Source of the DNA: Verrucomicrobiota bacterium
GTDB taxonomy: Bacteria > Verrucomicrobiota > Verrucomicrobiia > Chthoniobacterales > UBA6821
Length of the DNA: 32,000 nt
Assembly (NCBI GenBank): GCA_008932965.1
Contig: WBXG01000007.1
Span: 5,902 to 37,901, forward strand
Direction of reading: 5' to 3'
Shown here: in pieces, positions 1,259-29,585 of the stretch
How the letters are laid out: the number at the start of each line of letters is the position of its first letter
Numbering within the stretch: the stretch's first letter is position 1
The notes under the pieces: generated by a model
Seen by the model: only the letters and a program-made list of their open reading frames with translations
Told to the model about the DNA's origin: nothing
Databases searched by the model: none
Made by a program: the position numbers and the translations under genes

Positions 1259-3439
1259 CTATGCATAATGCGAGCTAGAATTTTTTTTCTTGAAATAAAA
1301 ATCATGTATCCAACAAATGATTCGCTGGATAAGGAATATCCCAGCACGTTCCAATTCAGATTTTTGCTGCCACTGATAAGCTCGCACTGGAATTGTTTCT
1401 TCTATGAGTTTTTTCCAAAATTTTAGAGTTGCTTCTTGAGTAAAAGCTTGTCCCGATCGGTGGCCATTTTGAACAAGCATAGCACGCAAACTTGGGTTTT
1501 CTTGAAGTTGTTTGAGTTGTTTAAAAACTTCTTTAAGTGATGTAGCCACGAGATAATCTATCTCAGGATTCCCATCAGCAGCATAAGCAGAATCGGATCC
1601 TCCAATAAAGGGAACTCCTGCTAACCAAGCATTATAGAGCTTTGTAGCAGGCTTATTCATATGCAAAGAGCGAGAGAAGCTGCGAATAGCAATCACACAG
1701 TCAACATCAGTATAATTATTCCACTCATGATATCCTCGTATTTGAAAATGAAGTCCAAGCTCTTCATATAGCCTGCGATGCCATTTTTGAGAACGAAGCT
1801 CCGGGGCAAGGTTTTGTATTTCCCCAAAGAAGCAGACATTTTCAAAGCGTGTTCCTCGAGTTGGATCACGTGGTTTTAGAAAAGGTTGAGGCCAGTGAGG
1901 AACATAAATGGAATTTGGAAGATAACGGGTATAATTTCTATTTTCCACTAAATGCAAATCCACACTAGGATGCGGTGTTTTATCAGCAAGAATATCGACT
2001 AGAAATAAATGTGGATTTATAGATTTTCGTCTGAGTAACGGGTTTAAAAGCTTGCTCATCGTAATACAAATTCCAGTATTTTTTTCAAAAGGAAACTCGG
2101 TGGAAAGAGTAGAGTTGACTCCAATTTTCTTAAGCAAACTCCATGTTTGATAAATCCAACATGTAATTGTAGGGCTTTTGATTGGTTGATTTAATGCCAT
2201 TGGGTCTCCTTCTTTCCATTTTTCTCCCCAATCATCAGCAGAAAGAAAATATTCCATGATATGAAATGAAATCTTATCAAGAAACTTGATGGGAATCTGT
2301 TTCTCCATTTTTTTCTGGAAATAGTTGGTATAATACCGAAGAAAAAAAGTAGATAAGGAAGGGACCTTTGCATGAATGCTTGCACACGTTGCAAATAAGA
2401 TGGAGGCACGTTTTAAAGCGTTCGCTGATGCTTTCCAGTACCAAGAAAGGAGTGGATGTTCCGGCTTTTTTTCTTGAGCCTCTAAAGAATAAAAAGTGGC
2501 ATCTATACTATTTTCGAGGGAAAATGCTGCCTTTCTCCAATATTCTGCTAACCGCTTATCTATTGTTAAAGCCTCACTTGCAGATGTGCGGTAGAAAATA
2601 ATTTTTTTATACACCTTTACCTGAGGAGGTAACTGATTATCTTCAAATTCTAATTTCTCTGCTTTGCAGGTCAGTTTCTTCCAGAGGTCATCGACAGCAT
2701 TCAAAGCTGCTAAAGCAGCTAGTGAATACTCAATAGCCTGATCTTCGTTGCCGATTTGAGTGGCCATTGCGGCTTCGATCCGTAACGCTAGAGCATTCTG
2801 ATTTAATTCGAGAAGCTCATTCCAGAGGTGTTTATAGGGTGCTATTTTCTCTGGTGAAATGGATGCAGTATGAATATGGATATTGGCAAGATGAGCTGCC
2901 GCATATGCTGCTTTTACCCAACGATGGGTTAACACTATATTCAAAAAAGCATCATGGTTGTTAAGCGCTTGTGCTTTTTTAAATAAGGAAACTGCCTTGA
3001 TAGCATAACGAGAGGCTTCAGGAAGAGTCGACTCATAGTGGATTGCTGCCTGCGATACTTCTTGTATTTCTTGATCAAAATCTTTTGAGGCTTGTGCCTG
3101 CGCAAAAGCTAACCAATAACGGTACGCCGAGCCTGCTTCCCTATTTTCATTCCTATGGAAGGCCCAATAGGAGATTTCTGATTTTTGAAGCTTGTGATCC
3201 AAATAGTAATTGCCTTCTTGGTTCCAATAGGTCAAAAACGCAATCGCATCAATACTATGGGTTCGTTGAGGTTTGAGTAGCGCAGTTGCAGTTCTTTGTT
3301 GATCTACGAATGCGGCCTCATCGCTTGCAAGCCTCCAATATGCAGCAAGTCTCTCGTTTCCGAAAGCAGAAGCCCTGAGAGCTTGCTCACGATAGAGAGC
3401 AATTTCATCTCTTGCTTCTCTCTGAATTGAAAAATCCAT
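1259..3439 (-). CDS. two-domain protein: an N-terminal Trp-rich helical-repeat region plus a C-terminal ~330-aa domain paralogous to the next gene (possible glycan-modifying enzyme, family not recognised)
   Basis: 726-aa ORF. The C-terminal half aligns colinearly with the whole product of 3462..4475. Shared blocks are CWIYQTW, FLVDI.AD..PHP, LHLV.NR, PHW.QP.L.PRDP.RG, NLAPELRS, DVD.VIAIR.FS and KPATKLYNAWLAGVPFIGG.DSAYAADG. The N-terminal half has recurring xYW(R/K)xA motifs (AAYWRLA, ISYWAF, YRYWLAF, AEYWRKA, SWYWKAS). Function is inferred only from the glycan-gene neighbourhood. Confidence 0.55.
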   Translation of the reverse strand: MDFSIQREARDEIALYREQALRASAFGNERLAAYWRLASDEAAFVDQQRTATALLKPQRTHSIDAIAFLTYWNQEGNYYLDHKLQKSEISYWAFHRNENREAGSAYRYWLAFAQAQASKDFDQEIQEVSQAAIHYESTLPEASRYAIKAVSLFKKAQALNNHDAFLNIVLTHRWVKAAYAAAHLANIHIHTASISPEKIAPYKHLWNELLELNQNALALRIEAAMATQIGNEDQAIEYSLAALAALNAVDDLWKKLTCKAEKLEFEDNQLPPQVKVYKKIIFYRTSASEALTIDKRLAEYWRKAAFSLENSIDATFYSLEAQEKKPEHPLLSWYWKASANALKRASILFATCASIHAKVPSLSTFFLRYYTNYFQKKMEKQIPIKFLDKISFHIMEYFLSADDWGEKWKEGDPMALNQPIKSPTITCWIYQTWSLLKKIGVNSTLSTEFPFEKNTGICITMSKLLNPLLRRKSINPHLFLVDILADKTPHPSVDLHLVENRNYTRYLPNSIYVPHWPQPFLKPRDPTRGTRFENVCFFGEIQNLAPELRSQKWHRRLYEELGLHFQIRGYHEWNNYTDVDCVIAIRSFSRSLHMNKPATKLYNAWLAGVPFIGGSDSAYAADGNPEIDYLVATSLKEVFKQLKQLQENPSLRAMLVQNGHRSGQAFTQEATLKFWKKLIEETIPVRAYQWQQKSELERAGIFLIQRIICWIHDFYFKKKNSSSHYA

Positions 3440-3461: not shown

Positions 3462-4475
3462 CTACCGTGTTACACGATCGAAATAACAAGAAAAGTGTTG
3501 CATGAGGTGCAAACAGGAATGTTCCAATGAGGATCGTTGCTTCCACTTGAGAGCTTCTGCAGGAAGCGTTGTTTGAACTAATTTCTTCCAACGATCGAGC
3601 GTTGCTTCCCTTGTATAGGAAACCACTGATTCCGATCCCTTCTGGACTAATTTCCAACGCATTACTGGATCTTCCTTGAGTTTTTTTAAATATTGAAAAA
3701 CTTTTTCAGCAGAGGTTCCTACAAGATAATCTTCTCCAGGATGACCATCAGCAGCATAGGCAGAATCGATTCCTCCAATGAAGGGAACACCAGCAAGCCA
3801 GGCATTATAAAGTTTGGTTGCTGGTTTATGAAGGTGCCTTGAGCCAGAAAAGTCACGAATTGCAATTACTCCATCGACATCGCTGTAATCATGCCAACGT
3901 CGTGCTTCTCTGATTTCTAGCAAAATACCAAGTTCTCTATGAAGTTGTTCTTGCCATGCTGCAGATCGTAGCTCCGGTGCAAGATTGCTACTGTCACCAA
4001 AAAAAGAGATTTTTTCAAAAAGAGAGCCACGTGCTGGGTCACGTGGAATCAGATGAGGTTGTGTCCAATGTGGCATAAAAAGGGAGCGCGGTAATTGTCT
4101 AGCATGAGCTCTGTTTTGAACAAGATGAAGATGCGCTGCAGGATGGGGCAACCCATCAGCAACAATATCGACAAGAAAGTAATTGTGAGAAATCCACTTT
4201 TTACCATTTTTTTTAAACTCCTCTTTGAAACAAGATACTATAGATGGAAAAGAGCTACTCATAGCGATGATAATACCCCCTTCATGAGGGAGGCTACCGA
4301 GAAGTGAACATGGAATCTTTTCCTGGATGAGCAAAGCCCATGTTTGATAGATCCAGCATTGAGCTGTGGCCCCTTTCCCTTTTTCTTCGAGTGGAATAAT
4401 CTGATTTTTTTCTAAGGCTTCTATCCAGAATTGGTTTGGAAAATGTTCTTTGGGCAAGATAAATGAGATAGGCAT
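3462..4475 (-). CDS. stand-alone paralog of the C-terminal domain of the 1259..3439 protein (possible glycan-modifying enzyme)
   Basis: 337-aa ORF lying 22 nt upstream of its paralog on the same strand. Long identical blocks, e.g. KPATKLYNAWLAGVPFIGG and DSAYAADG. Confidence 0.55.
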   Translation of the reverse strand: MPISFILPKEHFPNQFWIEALEKNQIIPLEEKGKGATAQCWIYQTWALLIQEKIPCSLLGSLPHEGGIIIAMSSSFPSIVSCFKEEFKKNGKKWISHNYFLVDIVADGLPHPAAHLHLVQNRAHARQLPRSLFMPHWTQPHLIPRDPARGSLFEKISFFGDSSNLAPELRSAAWQEQLHRELGILLEIREARRWHDYSDVDGVIAIRDFSGSRHLHKPATKLYNAWLAGVPFIGGIDSAYAADGHPGEDYLVGTSAEKVFQYLKKLKEDPVMRWKLVQKGSESVVSYTREATLDRWKKLVQTTLPAEALKWKQRSSLEHSCLHLMQHFSCYFDRVTR

Positions 4476-4496
4476 AAAAAAAGTGAGTGTGATGGG

Positions 4497-6243: not shown

Positions 6244-7379
6244 AGCGAGTATTGCATGTCATCGATCATCTTCAATTGGGTGGAGCTCAATCTTTATTGT
6301 TAGATTTAGTAACCTTAATGGAAAAATCAGAATGGCACTGTGAAGTTGCTTCCATGCATGGACGTGGTCTTTTTGCAGAACTCTTAGAAAAAAAAGGAAT
6401 CTCAGTCCATTCCCTCTCTCCCTCCTTATGGCCACCGTGTTATCTTGCTGCATTTGCAAGCCTCCAATCTCAATTTGATATTCTTCATTTTCATCTTTCG
6501 GGTTCCAATTGGATTGCCAAACCCATGGCAGCTCTCCTTGGAAATCAACCCCGGATATCACATGATCATGGGAGTGATGATTTTCGTTTTCGTGGTAGGG
6601 GATTTGTTTTAATGGATGCCATCATGCATCGCTTTTCAACACACACGATTGCCGTCACACCGGAGGTAAAACAATTTTTAACCCATTATGAAGCTCTTAC
6701 TGCGGAGTCAGTCACAGCGATCTCAAACGGAATCAACGTGGAAGAATTCCGTCCTTTTACTTCAGAAGAAAAAAAAGAAGCCCGTCTGTTTTTTGATTTG
6801 CCCTCGGAAGCATTTGTGGTGGGCACGGTAGGCCGTCTTGCGCCTGAAAAAAACCAAACACTTTTCTTGAAAGCCGCTAAAATTGCTCTCGAGCAAGGAT
6901 TGAAAGCTACTTTTCTAATTGCAGGGACAGGCCCCGAAGAAGCAGCTTTAAAAAAATGTGCTGCACAACTTGGCATCGAACATAGTGTTCGCTTTTTAGG
7001 ACAGATTAAAGATCGCGTCCAGCTCTACCGTTCATTAGATCTATTTGTACTAACCTCACGCTTTGAAGGTTTGCCAATGGTACTTTTAGAGGCCATGGCT
7101 TCAGGAATACCAGTTGTAAGCACCGATCTTGAGGGAATTCATCATGCACTTGAGGGAGGACGACATGGTCTCTTGATTCCCTCGGAGGATGAGATAGCTT
7201 TAAGTGACTGCTTGCTGCACTCCCATGAACGAATCCAACAAGAATCTTTGCGAAGTGCACGTCTTAAAGTAGAATCAGATTTTAGCGCTCAGAAAGCTGC
7301 TAAGAAGTTAGGGGATTTATATCAGTCACTTCTGAGCCCGAATATTTCACACCGATTACCTATGGAAGCCGGAAAGTAA
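6240..7379 (+). CDS. glycosyltransferase family 1 (GT4-type)
   Basis: HVIDHLQLGGAQSLLLDL, GRLAPEKNQ and LTSRFEGLPMVLLEAMASGIPVV (EX7E motif). The last ~47 nt, including the stop codon, lie inside repeat copy 7333..7610. Confidence 0.85.
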   Translation: MKRVLHVIDHLQLGGAQSLLLDLVTLMEKSEWHCEVASMHGRGLFAELLEKKGISVHSLSPSLWPPCYLAAFASLQSQFDILHFHLSGSNWIAKPMAALLGNQPRISHDHGSDDFRFRGRGFVLMDAIMHRFSTHTIAVTPEVKQFLTHYEALTAESVTAISNGINVEEFRPFTSEEKKEARLFFDLPSEAFVVGTVGRLAPEKNQTLFLKAAKIALEQGLKATFLIAGTGPEEAALKKCAAQLGIEHSVRFLGQIKDRVQLYRSLDLFVLTSRFEGLPMVLLEAMASGIPVVSTDLEGIHHALEGGRHGLLIPSEDEIALSDCLLHSHERIQQESLRSARLKVESDFSAQKAAKKLGDLYQSLLSPNISHRLPMEAGK

Positions 7380-7610
7380 GTGTGGACGCTTTATTGAGCT
7401 CGAAGTCTTCCTTGGGCGGTAGGTATTCATACAGCCCTGCATCAAAATGCTTGCCTGCGTTGACTCACTCGCTCCCACTCGTTTCCCCCTTTTAGGGCTT
7501 CCTAAGAGGCTCCTAAGAGACAGTCTCCCCCGCGGTCTCCAGACCACCGGTGGTGCCCTATCAGTCTTCGCGACCTCCTCTTTACGATCAGTATGAAATA
7601 TGCGGGCTGG
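7333..7610 (-). mobile_element. fold-back (MITE-like) element, full copy carrying the nested GC-rich cassette (7460..7555)
   Basis: The termini CCCGAATATTTCACACCGAT ... GATCAGTATGAAATATGCGGG are inverted repeats. The interior is colinear with copies 19599..19804 and 29326..29585. The flanks are degenerate here (TGAG/CTGG). Confidence 0.9.
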
Positions 7611-17914: not shown

Positions 17915-18009
17915 AAAAGAGCAAGAAGCCTCTTCTATCTTTTTAGTGCGCGCATTATTGAGTTTTTATGCTCTTAAGAAATTCAGAAAGCTGTTAGTTT
18001 AGCAGAATA

Positions 18010-18074
18010 TTAACCCGGATATTTTATACTGATCGCGGCCTTCGCTGGTGATCAGAATGAAATATGCGGGTTAA
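18010..18074. mobile_element. minimal 65-bp fold-back element (two TIRs plus a short spacer)
   Basis: TTAACCCGGATATTTTATACTGATCGCGGCCTTCGCTGGTGATCAGAATGAAATATGCGGGTTAA, a near-perfect hairpin with TTAA at both ends. Confidence 0.9.
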
Positions 18075-18104
18075 CCACATTATCCTACAGAATTTTTCAC
18101 ACTT

Positions 18105-18616: not shown

Positions 18617-18686
18617 TGAACGTAGTAATGATGAGCTCTCCACAAGCCGTAGTAGTAGTAGATTTAGTATGAAATATTTGGGCTAG
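18617..18686 (+). repeat. fold-back element family: right-arm fragment abutting the next full copy
   Basis: ...AACGTAGTAATGATGAGCTCTCCACAAGCCGTAGTAGTAGTAGATTTAGTATGAAATATTTGGG-CTAG parallels the right arm of 18683..18866 (AACGCAGCATCCATCTGACTTCCCAGCTTCCGTAGTAGATTGGTATGAAATATTTGGG-CTAG). It shares the CTAG at 18683-18686 with that copy. Confidence 0.75.
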
Positions 18687-18866
18687 CCCAAATATTTCAT
18701 ACTGATCGTGACGAGGAAGCTGCGAAGGGTGATGGGGCAAGGCAGTCGAGCATTTTGATGCTGGGCTGTATGAACACATACCGCCCAAGTCAAAATGGGA
18801 GTCTAACGCAGCATCCATCTGACTTCCCAGCTTCCGTAGTAGATTGGTATGAAATATTTGGGCTAG
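18683..18866 (+). mobile_element. fold-back (MITE-like) element, full core copy, used here as the orientation reference
   Basis: CTAG-CCCAAATATTTCATACTGATCG ... GATTGGTATGAAATATTTGGG-CTAG. The whole 184 bp is a long imperfect palindrome centred near 18772. Confidence 0.9.
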
Positions 18867-18870
18867 GATC

Positions 18871-19585: not shown

Positions 19586-19598
19586 TTACAGCTTCTTG

Positions 19599-19804
19599 TT
19601 AACCCGGATATTTCATTCCGATCACCTGCGGAAGCCGGGAAGCTAGGGTTGATGCTGCGTTGGTCTCGAATTGTGATTCGGGAGGTAGGGACTCTACAGC
19701 CCTGCATCAAAATGCTCGCCTGCGTTGACTCGCTCGCTCCCACGCGGTCTCCCATCAGCCTTCGCAGCCTCCTCATCACGATCAGTATGAAATATCCAGG
19801 TTAA
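19599..19804 (-). mobile_element. fold-back element, full copy with a minimal cassette (19725..19752)
   Basis: TTAA-CCCGGATATTTCATTCCGATC ... GATCAGTATGAAATATCCAGG-TTAA. Lies between the ROK remnant and the clpS stop codon. Confidence 0.9.
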
Positions 19805-20091
19805 AAAATTTGCTCCAATGCTGCTGTAAGCAAATATCCCTGGAGTTTTTCTACGTAGAGTTCTCCTTCTTCACGAGAGCCGGACCAAAGAGTAGAGCGT
19901 CCTTGTACGTGTACTTCGCGCATTTTTTTTTCTGCAATTTCTTTGCTAAATCCAAAGATCTTTTGAAATACCATAGTCACATAACTCATTAGATTAATAG
20001 GATCATCATGGACAACGACCTGCCAGACTGGCTCCAGTTCTAGTTCCATGACTGTTTCAGGATTTTCTAAAATGAGTGGTTCCGTTGTCAT
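19801..20091 (-). CDS. clpS: ATP-dependent Clp protease adaptor ClpS
   Basis: VVVHDDPINLMSYVTMVFQKIFGFSKEIAEKKMREVHVQGRS. The TAA stop is the TTAA flank of the adjacent element. Confidence 0.9.
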   Translation of the reverse strand: MTTEPLILENPETVMELELEPVWQVVVHDDPINLMSYVTMVFQKIFGFSKEIAEKKMREVHVQGRSTLWSGSREEGELYVEKLQGYLLTAALEQIF

Positions 20092-20629: not shown

Positions 20630-21304
20630 ATGCCGCATTCCAAGATCACTCACGATACTGTTACTGCTGCAGTAAAAAAAGGAACGGGTAAAAACAAATT
20701 ACCCCATTCTTGGAAAGATCCACTTCATCTTTTAAGTCGTTTTCTTGTAAAACCTCACTCTGTGGGATCCATTTGGCCAAGTTCCCAGCACCTGGCTCGA
20801 GCAATGATTGATGGTGTTGCTCTGAAGCCCGGAGATGTCATTGTGGAGTATGGACCGGGAACAGGGCCTTTTACACAGCTTTTACGGAATCATGTAGCTG
20901 CGGGAGTCGACTATATCGGCATTGAATATGATAAAAATCTCTATAAAAATCTGACTACTCGTTTTTCAGAAATGCGTTTTCATCATGGTTCTGCAGAAGA
21001 TACAGCAGCCATTCTCAAGCATTATAAGCTCAAGCCAGCTTCTCTCATTATCTCTGGATTACCTTTTGCAAATATGCCAACAGCACTTCAGGAGCGTATT
21101 CTCAATGCAACTCAAGAGGCACTCCTTGAGGATGGAATGTTCCGAACTTTTTCTTATCTCTTATCTTCAATGAGACCTCGTATTACTCACTTTCAAAAAA
21201 TGGTTTCTATCCGTTTCAATGAAAAGCATCAAAGTACAACAGTACTTCGAAACTTTCCTCCGGCACGTGTCTTTAGTTTTTCTCGACCAGTAATGCAAAA
21301 ATGA
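20630..21304 (+). CDS. class I SAM-dependent methyltransferase (phospholipid N-methyltransferase/COG3963-like)
   Basis: GSIWPSSQHLARAMID followed by motif I VEYGPGTGPFT. Confidence 0.65.
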   Translation: MPHSKITHDTVTAAVKKGTGKNKLPHSWKDPLHLLSRFLVKPHSVGSIWPSSQHLARAMIDGVALKPGDVIVEYGPGTGPFTQLLRNHVAAGVDYIGIEYDKNLYKNLTTRFSEMRFHHGSAEDTAAILKHYKLKPASLIISGLPFANMPTALQERILNATQEALLEDGMFRTFSYLLSSMRPRITHFQKMVSIRFNEKHQSTTVLRNFPPARVFSFSRPVMQK

Positions 21305-21343
21305 GTTGCCCGCCCACAATTGCAAACATACTGCTCCGTTTCA

Positions 21344-21418
21344 AGTTATCCCCATCCGTATTGAAAAGTAAAACTAGTTTGGCTGCCTTGCATAGATTTG
21401 AACTATGACAAGCAGATT
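21344..21418. repeat. 75-bp direct repeat, copy 1: duplicate of the tRNA-Gln 3' half (nt 36-74) plus 36 bp of downstream flank
   Basis: AGTTATCCCCATCCGTATTGAAAAGTAAAACTAGTTTGGCTGCCTTGCATAGATTTGAACTATGACAAGCAGATT is identical to 21518..21592 except for one T/C difference. Confidence 0.9.
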
Positions 21419-21517
21419 GACTCGCTCGCTCTCGCTCGTCTCGCCCCTTTGGGGTTGCTTTATCAAAGCAATCTACCCCGCGGCTTTGCAGCCGCCGGTG
21501 TTCAGTCTGAATCTGCT
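21419..21517 (+). mobile_element. 99-bp GC-rich cassette inserted between the two 75-bp repeats
   Basis: The preceding TT (21417-18, the last two bases of repeat copy 1) plus GACTCGCTCGCTCTCGCTCGTCTCGCCCCTTTGGGGTTGCTTTATCAAAGCAATCTACCCCGCGGCTTTGCAGCCGCCGGTG... is almost base-for-base the reverse complement of 22611..22684. The cassette ends in an inverted copy of the anticodon-stem sequence (AATCTGCT versus AGCAGATT). Confidence 0.8.
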
Positions 21518-21592
21518 AGTTATCCCCATCCGTATTGAAAAGTAAAACTAGCTTGGCTGCCTTGCATAGATTTGAACTATGACAAGCAGATT
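21518..21592. repeat. 75-bp direct repeat, copy 2 (part of the intact tRNA-Gln locus)
   Basis: See copy 1. It covers the 36-bp flank plus tRNA nt 36-74. Confidence 0.9.
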
Positions 21593-21627
21593 CAGAGTCT
21601 GCTGTGCTACCGTTACACCACAAGGCA
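21554..21627 (-). tRNA. tRNA-Gln: tRNA-Gln (anticodon CUG), CCA encoded
   Basis: Folded by hand from TGCCTTGTGGTGTAACGGTAGCACAGCAGACTCTGAATCTGCTTGTCATAGTTCAAATCTATGCAAGGCAGCCA. The 7-bp acceptor stem starts with a U1-A72 pair and has discriminator G, as in bacterial tRNA-Gln. The D stem is GTGT/GCAC. The anticodon stem is GCAGA/TCTGC with loop CTCTGAA. The T stem is CATAG/CTATG with loop TTCAAAT. Confidence 0.9.
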
Positions 21628-21637
21628 ATACATTGTC

Positions 21638-22162
21638 TTATTCTGAAAAAAATTCCGGTGGAGCTGTTAAGCTCATGATGCCGCCAAATTTAGAATAAAC
21701 AAAGCGGGAGGAGGTGGTATTACCACGTGTTATTCCAGAAACCTCCGTTATTCCTTGGTTGGCTAATTGCTCGAGTGAGGCATACAAAAGAGCAGAGCCG
21801 AAACCACGATTACGATATTCCGTAAGAACCCAAGGGCCGCTCAGCAGGTGACAGGGAGCCTCCGGTCTCATATCAAGTATCGATACTCCAATAATGCGAT
21901 GACCATGAGCTATGAGAAGGCACGAAGGGGTATTGTTATCAATAAAAGCTCGTTTTACTGCTTCATGAATGGCATTAGTGGCAATAATTGTAGCATCATG
22001 CCACTCTGTGTTCATTTTTAATGAAAGCAGAGCTACTTGTTTTACCATCTCCTTTTCATCATAGGAGGCTGGACGAACTGAAAATGGTGCTCCCAATTGA
22101 GGGCGATTAGGAAGCTTTACTGTTTTCCAATGAAAAAGATTCCAAGGTGTATTAGAAATCAT
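21638..22162 (-). CDS. GNAT-family N-acetyltransferase
   Basis: Acetyl-CoA motif YRNRGFGSALL. 174 aa. Confidence 0.75.
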   Translation of the reverse strand: MISNTPWNLFHWKTVKLPNRPQLGAPFSVRPASYDEKEMVKQVALLSLKMNTEWHDATIIATNAIHEAVKRAFIDNNTPSCLLIAHGHRIIGVSILDMRPEAPCHLLSGPWVLTEYRNRGFGSALLYASLEQLANQGITEVSGITRGNTTSSRFVYSKFGGIMSLTAPPEFFSE

Positions 22163-22216: not shown

Positions 22217-22401
22217 TTAACCCGAATATTTCATCCTGATCTACTACGGAAGACGGGAAGCAAGGGTGGATGCTGCGTTAGGCTCCCATTTTGACTTGGA
22301 CAGTACCTACTCATACAGTCCTGCATCAAAATACGTGTCTGCCTTGCCCCATCAGCCTTCGCAGCTTCCTCGTCACGACTAGTATGAAATATTCGGTTTA
22401 A
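22217..22401 (-). mobile_element. fold-back element, full core copy
   Basis: TTAA-CCCGAATATTTCATCCTGATC ... GACTAGTATGAAATATTCGGT-TTAA. Colinear with the reverse complement of 18683..18866. Confidence 0.9.
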
Positions 22402-22510: not shown

Positions 22511-22864
22511 TTAACCCGCCTACTTCATACCGATTCTGCTGCAGCTTGCGAACACCTGATAGATACTGCGTCAGTCTCGAATTGCTCCTCGGGCAGTATG
22601 ACTACCGGCAGCGGGGAAGCTGCGGGAGAGATTGTCGCAAAGCGACAACCCGAAGGGCGAGACGAGCGAGAGCGAGCGAGTCAAACTACAGCCGTCGTCG
22701 CAATCCATCACCTTCGTTGACTCGCTCGCTCCCGTTCGTCTCGCCCTTTCAGGGCTGCCCCCTAAAGCCAGGGCAGTCTCCACCACGGTCTCCCGACCGC
22801 AGGTGGTTTCTGTATCAGGATTCGAGGCGCCTTGCGACGAACCAGTATGAAATATGCGGGTTAA
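22511..22864 (-). mobile_element. composite 354-bp fold-back element with two inverted copies of the GC-rich cassette (22611..22684 inverted, 22717..22806 direct)
   Basis: TTAA-CCCGCCTACTTCATACCGAT ... ACCAGTATGAAATATGCGGG-TTAA. The left ~90 nt is colinear with copy 25457..25640. Internal inverted repeat: GAAGGGCGAGACGAGCGAGAGCGAGCGAGTCAA / TTGACTCGCTCGCTCCCGTTCGTCTCGCCCTTTC. Confidence 0.9.
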
Positions 22865-22923
22865 TTGAGGATGGACTATCAAGGAGAGCGCAGAAGTGGT
22901 AGCAATGATAACAATTATAGAAG

Positions 22924-25456: not shown

Positions 25457-25640
25457 CTAACCCGCCCATTTCATACCGATTCTGCTGCGGCTTGCGAACA
25501 CCTGATGGATACTGCGTCAGCTTCGAATTGCTCCTCGGGCAGTAGGGACTCATACAGCCCTACATCAAAATGCTCGCCTGCCTCACCCCATCAGCCCCCG
25601 CGGCCTCCTCGTCACGATCAGTATGAAATATCCGGGTTAA
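25457..25640 (-). mobile_element. fold-back element, full core copy (variant left arm shared with 22511..22864)
   Basis: CTAA-CCCGCCCATTTCATACCGAT ... GATCAGTATGAAATATCCGGG-TTAA. Confidence 0.9.
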
Positions 25641-25649
25641 AAGTTCTGT

Positions 25650-29325: not shown

Positions 29326-29585
29326 TTAGCCCGCATATTTCATACCGATCTACTGCGAAGACCGGGAAGCCAGGATGGATGCTGCGTTGATCTCGAAGTC
29401 CGCCTCGGGCAGTATGAAACATACAGCCGTCATCAAAATACTCATCTGCGTTGACTCGCTCGCTCTCGCTCTTTCAGGGCTTTCTAGGGCTTTCTAGGGC
29501 TTTCTAGGGCTTCTAAAGGCAGTCGGCAGTCTCTCGACCTTCGGTGGTGCCCCTTTAGCCTTAGCGGCCTTCTCGTTACAATCAG
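29326..29585 (-). mobile_element. fold-back element with cassette (29451..29549); right TIR truncated
   Basis: TTAG-CCCGCATATTTCATACCGATCTACTGCGAAGACCGGGAAGCC... The right end stops at ...CTTCTCGTTACAATCAG and lacks the TATGAAATAT part. Confidence 0.85.
29471..29520. repeat. 10-nt tandem repeat (TTTCTAGGGC x3 perfect, plus degenerate flanking units) in the cassette core
   Basis: CTTTCAGGGC TTTCTAGGGC TTTCTAGGGC TTTCTAGGGC TTCTAAAGGC, read directly. Confidence 0.9.

Follow-up and report, generated by a model that had tools for sequence, protein, structure and literature searches.

An att-like arrangement at a verrucomicrobial tRNA-Gln gene that probably arose by duplication in place around a copy of a dispersed hairpin repeat

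The 32,000-nucleotide (nt) stretch of DNA analyzed here (the window; contig WBXG01000007.1 of assembly GCA_008932965.1, positions 5,902 to 37,901 of the forward strand), from a Verrucomicrobiota bacterium of the order Chthoniobacterales, contains a tRNA-Gln gene whose 3' half occurs a second time downstream of the intact gene, on the far side of a short GC-rich insert. Duplicated tRNA 3' ends routinely delimit genomic islands and prophages, and this locus has the look of the paired attachment (att) sites left by an integrase. Our analysis indicates that it probably mimics an att scar without being an integration scar, and that the structure is most likely an in situ tandem duplication produced by a replication error, with a copy of a dispersed repeat at its joint. 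If so, a small dispersed repeat and an error of replication can together create an att-like signature without any integrase, the result can persist with a varying copy number, and such loci would be a source of both false att calls and contig breaks in metagenomes. We regard the locus as a variant of known processes in which the repeat family and its recurrence at tRNA genes are most worth attention; the work exposes an apparently undescribed verrucomicrobial family of hairpin repeats with an invariant 30-nt head and covarying hairpins.

ARAGORN and Rfam (RF00005, 64 bits) agree on the sole tRNA gene of the window, an intact tRNA-Gln(CUG) with an encoded CCA end at 21554-21627 on the minus strand. 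A direct-repeat search recovered two 75-nt copies on the same strand, 174 nt apart and identical at 74 of 75 positions (99%), with a single G/A difference. The proximal copy (21518-21592) comprises tRNA nt 36 to 74 (21554-21592) and a 36-nt trailer (21518-21553), and the distal copy (21344-21418) comprises a second version of tRNA nt 36 to 74 (21380-21418) and of the trailer (21344-21379). The anticodon occupies nt 33 to 35, and the repeat thus starts immediately past it. The 99 bp between the copies (21419-21517) have a GC content of 58.6%, versus 42.9% for the window. The first-pass annotation of this DNA, made from the letters without database searches, had described the gene, the two repeats with their one-base difference, the boundary after the anticodon and the GC-rich insert in the same terms, and all of these hold. 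Neither ARAGORN nor Rfam calls a tRNA in the distal pseudo-half, and the possibility that it forms a hidden tRNA together with its flank was rejected, as in the minimum-free-energy fold the genuine 5' acceptor strand simply pairs with one copy or the other.

The same annotation took the 99 bp to be a single cassette. The insert is real, but it is composite, consisting of an 82-nt core (21419-21500) that belongs to a dispersed repeat family and a 17-nt junction (21501-21517) derived from the tRNA. The core, hereafter the cassette, reads on the plus strand, antisense to the tRNA, as a head, (TT)GACTCGCTCGCTCTCGCTCGTCTCGCCC, three hairpins and a CCGGTG tail; the TT at 21417-21418 is common to the head and the distal repeat copy. 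It is joined exactly at the boundary between anticodon loop and stem, after tRNA nt 37. On the tRNA strand, the junction reads AGCAGATTCAGA followed by CTGAA. Exact-match analysis and an inverted-repeat search identified its first 12 nt (AGCAGATTCAGA) as an exact inverted copy of tRNA nt 32 to 43 and its last 5 nt (CTGAA) as a direct copy of tRNA nt 33 to 37, the antisense and sense parts together making a palindrome with a 1-nt center. The tRNA-derived 8-bp inverted pair seen at first reading, AGCAGATT and AATCTGCT, is present and sits within this longer inverted match, which is exact over 12 of 12 positions and holds at 16 of 18 over the arms 21506-21523 and 21579-21596. Because the anticodon stem is self-complementary, the AGCAGA of the junction lends itself just as well to a reading as tRNA nt 25 to 30 copied directly, and the pseudo-copy may therefore start at nt 25. 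At the outer boundaries there is microhomology between ACTCTGAA in the tRNA and ACTTGAA at the end of the trailer, i.e., ACT(C)TGAA.

The same plan is seen at a distant orthologous locus (L111). Its junction is homologous to that of the window but longer, with 8 nt antisense and 9 nt sense around a 1-base center: an inverted version of the anticodon arm that has diverged comes first, followed by GACTCTGAA, a direct copy of nt 29 to 37. On sequence comparison, the junction of the window can be derived from the L111 type through loss of the palindrome tip, and the succession of antisense and sense copies of the anticodon loop at both loci reads as the signature of a fold-back event.

On the basis of these observations, we suggest that the ancestral state was a tRNA-Gln gene followed by trailer and flank, as still seen at a single-copy locus (L009, below), and that a replication-linked error copied a second time the stretch that runs from the anticodon arm of the tRNA to 36 nt beyond the 3' end of the gene, giving one intact gene and one 5'-truncated pseudo-copy. 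This could have happened in a single complex template switch of the type known as fork stalling and template switching (FoSTeS) or microhomology-mediated break-induced replication (MMBIR), in which the fork would stall in the tRNA gene, itself probably transcribed head-on, and the nascent strand would move to a copy of the repeat, cross the anticodon hairpin and resume behind the stall site. In a two-step variant, a microhomology-mediated duplication would have come first and the repeat would then have inserted into the dispensable pseudo-copy. Only products that regenerate a complete tRNA and some trailer would survive, and such selection for an intact tRNA would account for a repeat that spans both the 3' part of the tRNA and the trailer. 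Thereafter, the 174-bp unit would behave as a minisatellite, in which units are gained or lost through unequal crossing-over or slippage, which also homogenizes the inner copies. The locus combines a tandem duplication, a templated insertion with an inverted and then a direct copy of a hairpin, and short homologies at the breakpoints, a combination of the kind that a stalled fork produces through serial template switching. An abundant, hairpin-rich repeat and a head-on tRNA gene are plausible partners for such a switch. The cumulative GC skew rises monotonically along the plus strand of the whole window, suggesting that this strand is probably leading and that the tRNA is transcribed head-on to replication.

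Template switching of the FoSTeS/MMBIR type (PMC2583991) and the strand switching at short inverted repeats of origin-dependent inverted-repeat amplification (ODIRA; PMC11790251) share with the locus the tandem duplication, the templated and inverted insertion at the breakpoint, the microhomology and a hairpin-forming site. They are documented mainly in eukaryotes and at scales of kilobases to megabases, whereas the unit here measures 174 bp and lies in a bacterium; moreover, a dispersed repeat is the inserted template here, and the resulting structure has long been passed on and altered in size.

The first explanation offered by the annotation was a collapsed integrative element; in this case, an integrase-borne island would once have entered the tRNA-Gln 3' half and decayed to about 100 bp, with attL and attR left behind. 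The resemblance to the scars of prophages, integrative and conjugative elements and cis-mobilizable elements is genuine, in that a direct repeat of the tRNA 3' part lies some distance downstream of the intact gene, the classic signature of integration. However, the repeat runs 36 nt into a chromosomal trailer that L009, a single-copy locus, has as well, and an att core would not extend into a lineage-specific trailer; the "island" consists of a genome-wide repeat and tRNA-derived filler; and the unit is tandemly amplified in one strain (L002). In agreement with the annotation, no integrase was found nearby: scans with NCBIfam and Pfam of 30 open reading frames (ORFs) covering the window detected no integrase, transposase or reverse transcriptase domain in any ORF of at least 140 amino acids (aa) in the 32 kb, and the gene tables of the orthologous loci list no recombinase. 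About 20 related loci were examined, none of which has a large island between the repeats, although an uninterrupted single copy, the other state of which the annotation had advised a search, does exist (e.g., L009). One structure fits a decayed island better, namely, a terminal half-copy in the L111 species that is slightly degenerate and passes directly into unrelated DNA. Taken together, these findings make a collapsed element very improbable, and we regard it as effectively refuted.

The cassette belongs to a family that we collected with a degenerate pattern for the head, a sample that is thus biased toward head conservation. Copies occur in at least 96 eight-kb genome blocks, nearly all from Verrucomicrobiota (Chthoniobacterales, Terrimicrobiaceae and "Spartobacteria"); two blocks labeled Burkholderiales and Blastochloris are probably misbinned. 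In this head-selected sample, the 30-nt head TTGACTCGCTCGCTCCCGCTCGTCTCGCCC (21417-21446 in the window) is essentially invariant across metagenome-assembled genomes (MAGs) that differ in order and in GC content. When 68 copies were aligned, it proved to be followed by a small GCCC/GGGC hairpin, two further hairpins and the CCGGTG tail, the two further hairpins having double-sided compensatory changes in 16 to 28 of the 68 sequences per pair. Covariation across these copies gave no bias of G-U over A-C pairs, and the structure may therefore matter on either strand or as DNA. The invariant head together with the covarying hairpins suggests recognition by a conserved factor. The family appears to be undescribed: the cassettes of the window and of an array at L068 have no Rfam match at an E value of ≤1, and literature searches with the cassette sequence string and for repeat insertions that restore a tRNA returned no relevant paper in the collection searched. 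A permissive Rfam comparison of the cassette, the L068 array and the insert at a tRNA-Thr locus (below) gave a small nucleolar RNA match that was below threshold and dismissed as chance. A scan of metagenome contigs gave 0 matches to the 30-mer across the cassette-to-tRNA junction; 8 matches to the cassette end combined with a generic T-loop all lay in coding DNA and were likewise set aside as chance.

Six further copies in the window, at 7460-7553, 19720-19750 (truncated), 22591-22687 (minus strand, inverted), 22717-22810 (plus strand), 24104 and 29451-29560, all lie inside IS5-like MITEs (transposable elements of miniature size with inverted repeats). One of these MITEs (22511-22865) holds a head-to-head pair of cassettes with 32 nt between them. 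Cassettes occupy two fixed internal positions of the MITEs, of which filled and empty versions exist, and filled/empty pairs show clean insertion of the cassette with no target duplication. The cassette is not itself a MITE, having no terminal inverted repeats (TIRs). In one window copy, four tandem copies of GGGCTTTCTA (29470-29512) replace the second hairpin. High-GC relatives carry cassette arrays, one of three copies with a period of 87 (L044, 6228-6490) and one with a period of 174 and two alternating variants (L068, 4912-5350; MAG MFD03250.bin.1.70), and in these relatives the cassette often adjoins heptamer tandem repeats (CACCATT, GACTTTC and CAATCAC). At two further loci (L032, 340-545; L023, 1700-1950), a second small hairpin repeat, GCCAGCAGGCTGGC...CGGCAGCGGGCTGCCG, flanks cassettes in mosaics that resemble BIMEs (the interspersed mosaic elements of bacteria).

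The longest direct matches between the upstream flank and the region past the tail in 97 nonredundant copies from Verrucomicrobiota MAGs are distributed as in shuffled-pair controls, as are inverted matches, and no target sequence is common to them. By blastn of the flanks, repeats of unique sequence occur only at the tRNA-Gln locus and at the tRNA-Thr loci described below. A long flanking repeat is therefore not a general property of the cassette; since none of the 97 other copies has a flanking repeat of unique sequence, long repeats would be confined to cassettes in essential genes, as the proposed selection would explain. A 46-nt flanking repeat at L032 that had been considered as a target duplication proved to be the second hairpin repeat family. 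IS200/IS605-like logic, with a fixed flanking tetranucleotide and an element end TCAA, was rejected as the flanks share no tetranucleotide, and an integron attC core site (GTTRRRY) was rejected as GTTGACT does not fit.

The arrangement of tRNA, trailer, cassette and second half-tRNA with trailer is present in eight of eight contigs (L001 to L008) from different samples and assemblers, and the protein encoded upstream, a GNAT acetyltransferase, has an identical sequence on contigs that come from eight or more other samples and assemblers. The number of units varies between strains, with 1.4 in the window and seven contigs and 2.4 in L002, which has three repeat copies and two cassettes (Tandem Repeats Finder, period 174, 2.4 copies, 98% matches). 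The 174-bp unit is thus a variable-number tandem repeat, with head-to-tail units in strain-variable number. The inner copy of L002 matches the first copy exactly, and the trailer of its terminal copy differs at 4 of 36 positions, a divergence also seen in L001, L004, L005 and L006. In L001-type strains, the pseudo-half is identical to the tRNA at 39 of 39 positions and its trailer is different at 4 of 36; in the window and L003, the terminal copy is a mosaic. This pattern fits a small tandem array under unequal exchange and gene conversion. Of the three origins that the annotation had listed, it is thus replication slippage or tandem duplication that has gained ground, through the variable unit, the boundary microhomology and the fold-back junction. 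Its proviso, that its reading would fall if this were a simple tandem duplication with no tie to cassettes at other sites, applies in part: tandem duplication is indeed what the locus shows, yet the insert is clearly a member of a dispersed family.

These contigs also bear on the suspicion that a collapsed or duplicated repeat in the assembly created the structure. Short-read contigs of several relatives break at or inside the tRNA, and a distal copy at one of the tRNA-Thr loci (L076) contains a 100-N scaffold gap. Against this, the junctions are identical in the eight contigs, which come from ENA, NCBI and JGI assemblies, and both repeat copies bear strain-specific differences, so that the chance of an artifact is negligible. 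The short-read contigs L010, L014, L118, L127 and L131 end inside or right after tRNA-Gln. Such ends are consistent with repeats that break assemblies and are silent on the presence of a cassette; L127 and L131, which are anchored by their GNAT genes, stop inside the tRNA and are likewise silent on the array.

We ranked related loci, whose GNAT homologs are labeled Verrucomicrobia or Chthoniobacterales, by GNAT identity to the protein of the window. The tRNA-Gln sequence at the orthologous locus is identical or nearly so in all of them. The architecture is present in the clade of the window (100%), L029 (79%) and L111 (58%) and absent from L009 (93%), L011 (81%), L012 (71%), L113 and L128 (65%), L112 (60%) and L117 (57%), with single-copy tRNA-Gln sites at L009, L012, L112, L113, L117 and L128. 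A deletion between the repeats would also yield a single-copy site, and such sites thus fit either history. In L009, a single tRNA with the same trailer is contiguous with the same downstream flank, interrupted only by an IS5-like MITE with a CTAG duplication 7 nt after the CCA. Because the more distant L029 shares an identical junction and a 91% similar cassette with the window, the single copy of L009 is most simply explained by loss of the unit through recombination between the repeats.

In both L029 and L111, the duplication begins at the same tRNA nucleotide as in the window, each with its own diverged trailer. The L111 tRNA has lineage-specific changes in the acceptor stem and an unrelated 38-nt trailer, and its second copy is identical to the first at 77 of 77 positions. 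In its variable region, the L111 cassette is nearest to those of L029 (0.68) and the window (0.63), by a marginal distance from the next (0.61). A second contig of the L111 MAG (L047), which also encodes homologs of the phosphofructokinase (PFK) and orf165 of the window neighborhood, starts in the same cassette and continues into the slightly degenerate half-tRNA mentioned above (2 differences), from which we conclude that two or more cassettes and a diverged terminal copy make up the array of this species. One old origin, followed by concerted evolution and by losses on several occasions, appears somewhat more likely to us than independent origins.

A second case of tRNA duplication with a cassette comes from two other species of Chthoniobacterales (L076, 6574-7089; L093, 1-260), where a tRNA-Thr(UGU) and its trailer precede an oppositely oriented cassette, after which the last 10 nt of the tRNA and the trailer occur once more. 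The repeat is about 134 nt in L076, in which the exact 9-mer AATCCGACA stands at both boundaries, one occurrence lying in the T arm and the other in the flank; the second copy of L093 measures 34 nt. The two copies of L076 differ at two positions, and despite the scaffold gap in its distal copy, L093 independently confirms both junctions. The empty state is represented by L132 (3284-3400; neighboring protein 85% identical), with only the tRNA-Thr and a short trailer. Another absence from L132 is that of a 93-nt segment which the L076 and L093 species have and which sequence comparison rejects as tRNA derived. The history of the tRNA-Thr locus is more complex than one event. Compared with tRNA-Gln, both the position in the tRNA and the orientation of the cassette are different. 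Together with the 97 ordinary copies and their want of a target duplication, inverted repeat or common target, this leaves the remaining suggestion of the annotation, that the cassette targets the anticodon-loop region, unsupported as a general property.

An alternative that draws on both tRNAs is that the cassette is a nonautonomous element mobilized in trans, whose insertion machinery can hit tRNA genes and makes long target duplications of variable size (75 bp at Gln and 34 to about 137 bp at Thr) by two widely staggered nicks or target-primed copying, so that the duplication is part of the insertion chemistry and regenerates the tRNA. The family is clearly mobile or recombining, given its fixed, filled or empty sites in MITEs; in two independent tRNAs, the cassette sits precisely at the breakpoint inside the tRNA; both architecture and start nucleotide are common to three tRNA-Gln lineages between which lie lineages without the array; and the extra and inverted nucleotides at one junction recall the 5'-junction irregularities of target-primed insertion by long interspersed nuclear elements (LINEs). 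However, the 97 other copies show neither target duplications above control nor flanking inverted repeats, the Gln and Thr sites agree neither in target sequence nor in tRNA position nor in orientation, the neighborhood encodes no candidate enzyme, and the homology of the window and L111 junctions with their mutually nearest cassettes favors one old event over recurrent targeting. Hence, we consider mobilization in trans unlikely. We are also rather doubtful of a bolder variant, that the cassette is a new mobile element independent of any recombinase, which on landing in a tRNA intrinsically resynthesizes its 3' part and trailer (34 to 137 bp, with a fold-back footprint) and has done so repeatedly at Gln nt 36 and Thr nt 66. 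If true, such a duplication-coupled cassette would amount to integrase-free insertion into tRNA genes without killing them, a new and safe use of these genes by mobile DNA.

Several points weigh against a replication error in place. The proposed intermediates, a duplication without a cassette or a cassette without a duplication, were not found at the loci examined. At tRNA-Gln, the microhomology covers few bases, is inexact and becomes weak in L111, and the direction of replication, which probably makes the tRNA head-on, is read from skew alone. The terminal half-copy of L047 abuts unrelated DNA with a T-run directly, with no trailer, and looks more like a displaced original 3' half. That the cassette lies exactly on the breakpoint inside each of two different tRNAs hints that the mechanism is coupled to the cassette itself. 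Finally, the architecture spans GNAT divergence down to 58% identity and is interleaved with at least seven lineages without an array; 75-nt repeats only 99 bp apart should be lost easily, and yet the array persists, which implies selection, very frequent reexpansion or repeated re-creation. The persistence and the exact placement keep alive both an insertion coupled to the cassette and a selected role.

Such a role might be that of a cotranscribed terminator or insulator between convergent genes, a substrate for processing or a decoy, or a platform for a factor that recognizes the 30-nt head. The array lies between the tRNA, which starts downstream of the GNAT gene (21638-22162, minus strand; 10 nt from its stop codon to the tRNA) that anchored the retrieval of orthologous loci, and a convergent methyltransferase gene (20630-21304, plus strand) that bounds the intergenic region. 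The only terminator-like site, a hairpin with a T-run at 21307-21328 (minus strand; terminator scan, consensus match only), is beyond the whole array on the tRNA strand, and a tRNA transcript is thus predicted to run through trailer, cassette and pseudo-half first. Its position, the persistence over deep divergence despite easy deletion, the intact pseudo-half beside a diverged trailer in L001-type strains and the invariant head and covarying hairpins across the phylum would all accord with usefulness. On the other hand, the array is missing from most relatives, including the 93% identical one, with no visible compensation; gene conversion explains the identity of the pseudo-half equally well; the Thr case duplicates only 10 nt of tRNA; and the pairing changes have no strand bias that would hint at a role as RNA. 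We therefore regard maintenance for a function as distinctly improbable, and the replication-error duplication remains the reading that we favor.

[quoted passage not shown] It shares with them short, GC-rich palindromic units, a high copy number, intergenic location, mosaics and arrays, and presence at the joint of a tandem duplication; REP sequences were reportedly found at the join points of tandem duplications by Shyamala et al. in 1990. Because the joint holds a single cassette and the outer boundaries hold none, the duplication here did not come from recombination between two preexisting copies. REP families have been reviewed (PMC3733652; PMC2817692). A REP has a 5' GTAG or CGTC tag, a single palindrome of 20 to 40 nt and a cognate REP-associated tyrosine transposase, whereas the cassette, at 80 to 90 nt, has a nonpalindromic invariant head of 30 nt and three hairpins and lacks the GTAG/CGTC tag architecture.

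The very small nested mobile repeats of cyanobacteria, said to have been described by Elhai et al. in 2008, and BOX-type elements are likewise short structured modules found in MITEs and beside heptamer tandem repeats with no target duplication, but they belong to another phylum and differ in sequence; we know of no tRNA-restoring duplication described for them. The target-primed duplications of LINEs and short interspersed nuclear elements resemble the locus in the long, variable duplications around a structured noncoding insert and in the irregular nucleotides at one junction, and differ from it in that the cassette has no poly-A tail and no reverse transcriptase and ordinary members of its family are without duplication.

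The MITEs of the window are dense and measure 185 to 355 bp, with TIRs of the form CCCG.ATATTTCATAC...GTATGAAATAT.CGGG, and are bounded by YTAR tetranucleotides. They lie at 7333-7610, 18684-18868, 19598-19806, 22217-22401, 22511-22865, 25457-25642 and 29325 to about 29590, with fragments near 4493, 10346, 11712, 13823, 18009-18076, 24229 and 30467. Comparison of L009 and the window provides a filled and empty pair of such a MITE, in which the 4-bp CTAG duplication corresponds to the target pattern of IS5-type elements. The 30 ORFs scanned are housekeeping or unannotated, the former including PFK, class I aldolase, ketol-acid reductoisomerase (KARI), YbeY, GrpE, DnaJ, superoxide dismutase (SOD) and glycosyltransferases, among others. 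Two adjacent ORFs on the minus strand, at 1259-3439 (726 aa) and 3462-4475 (337 aa), neither of which has a Pfam or NCBIfam match, have in common a 240-nt stretch at 71% identity and look like a paralogous pair.

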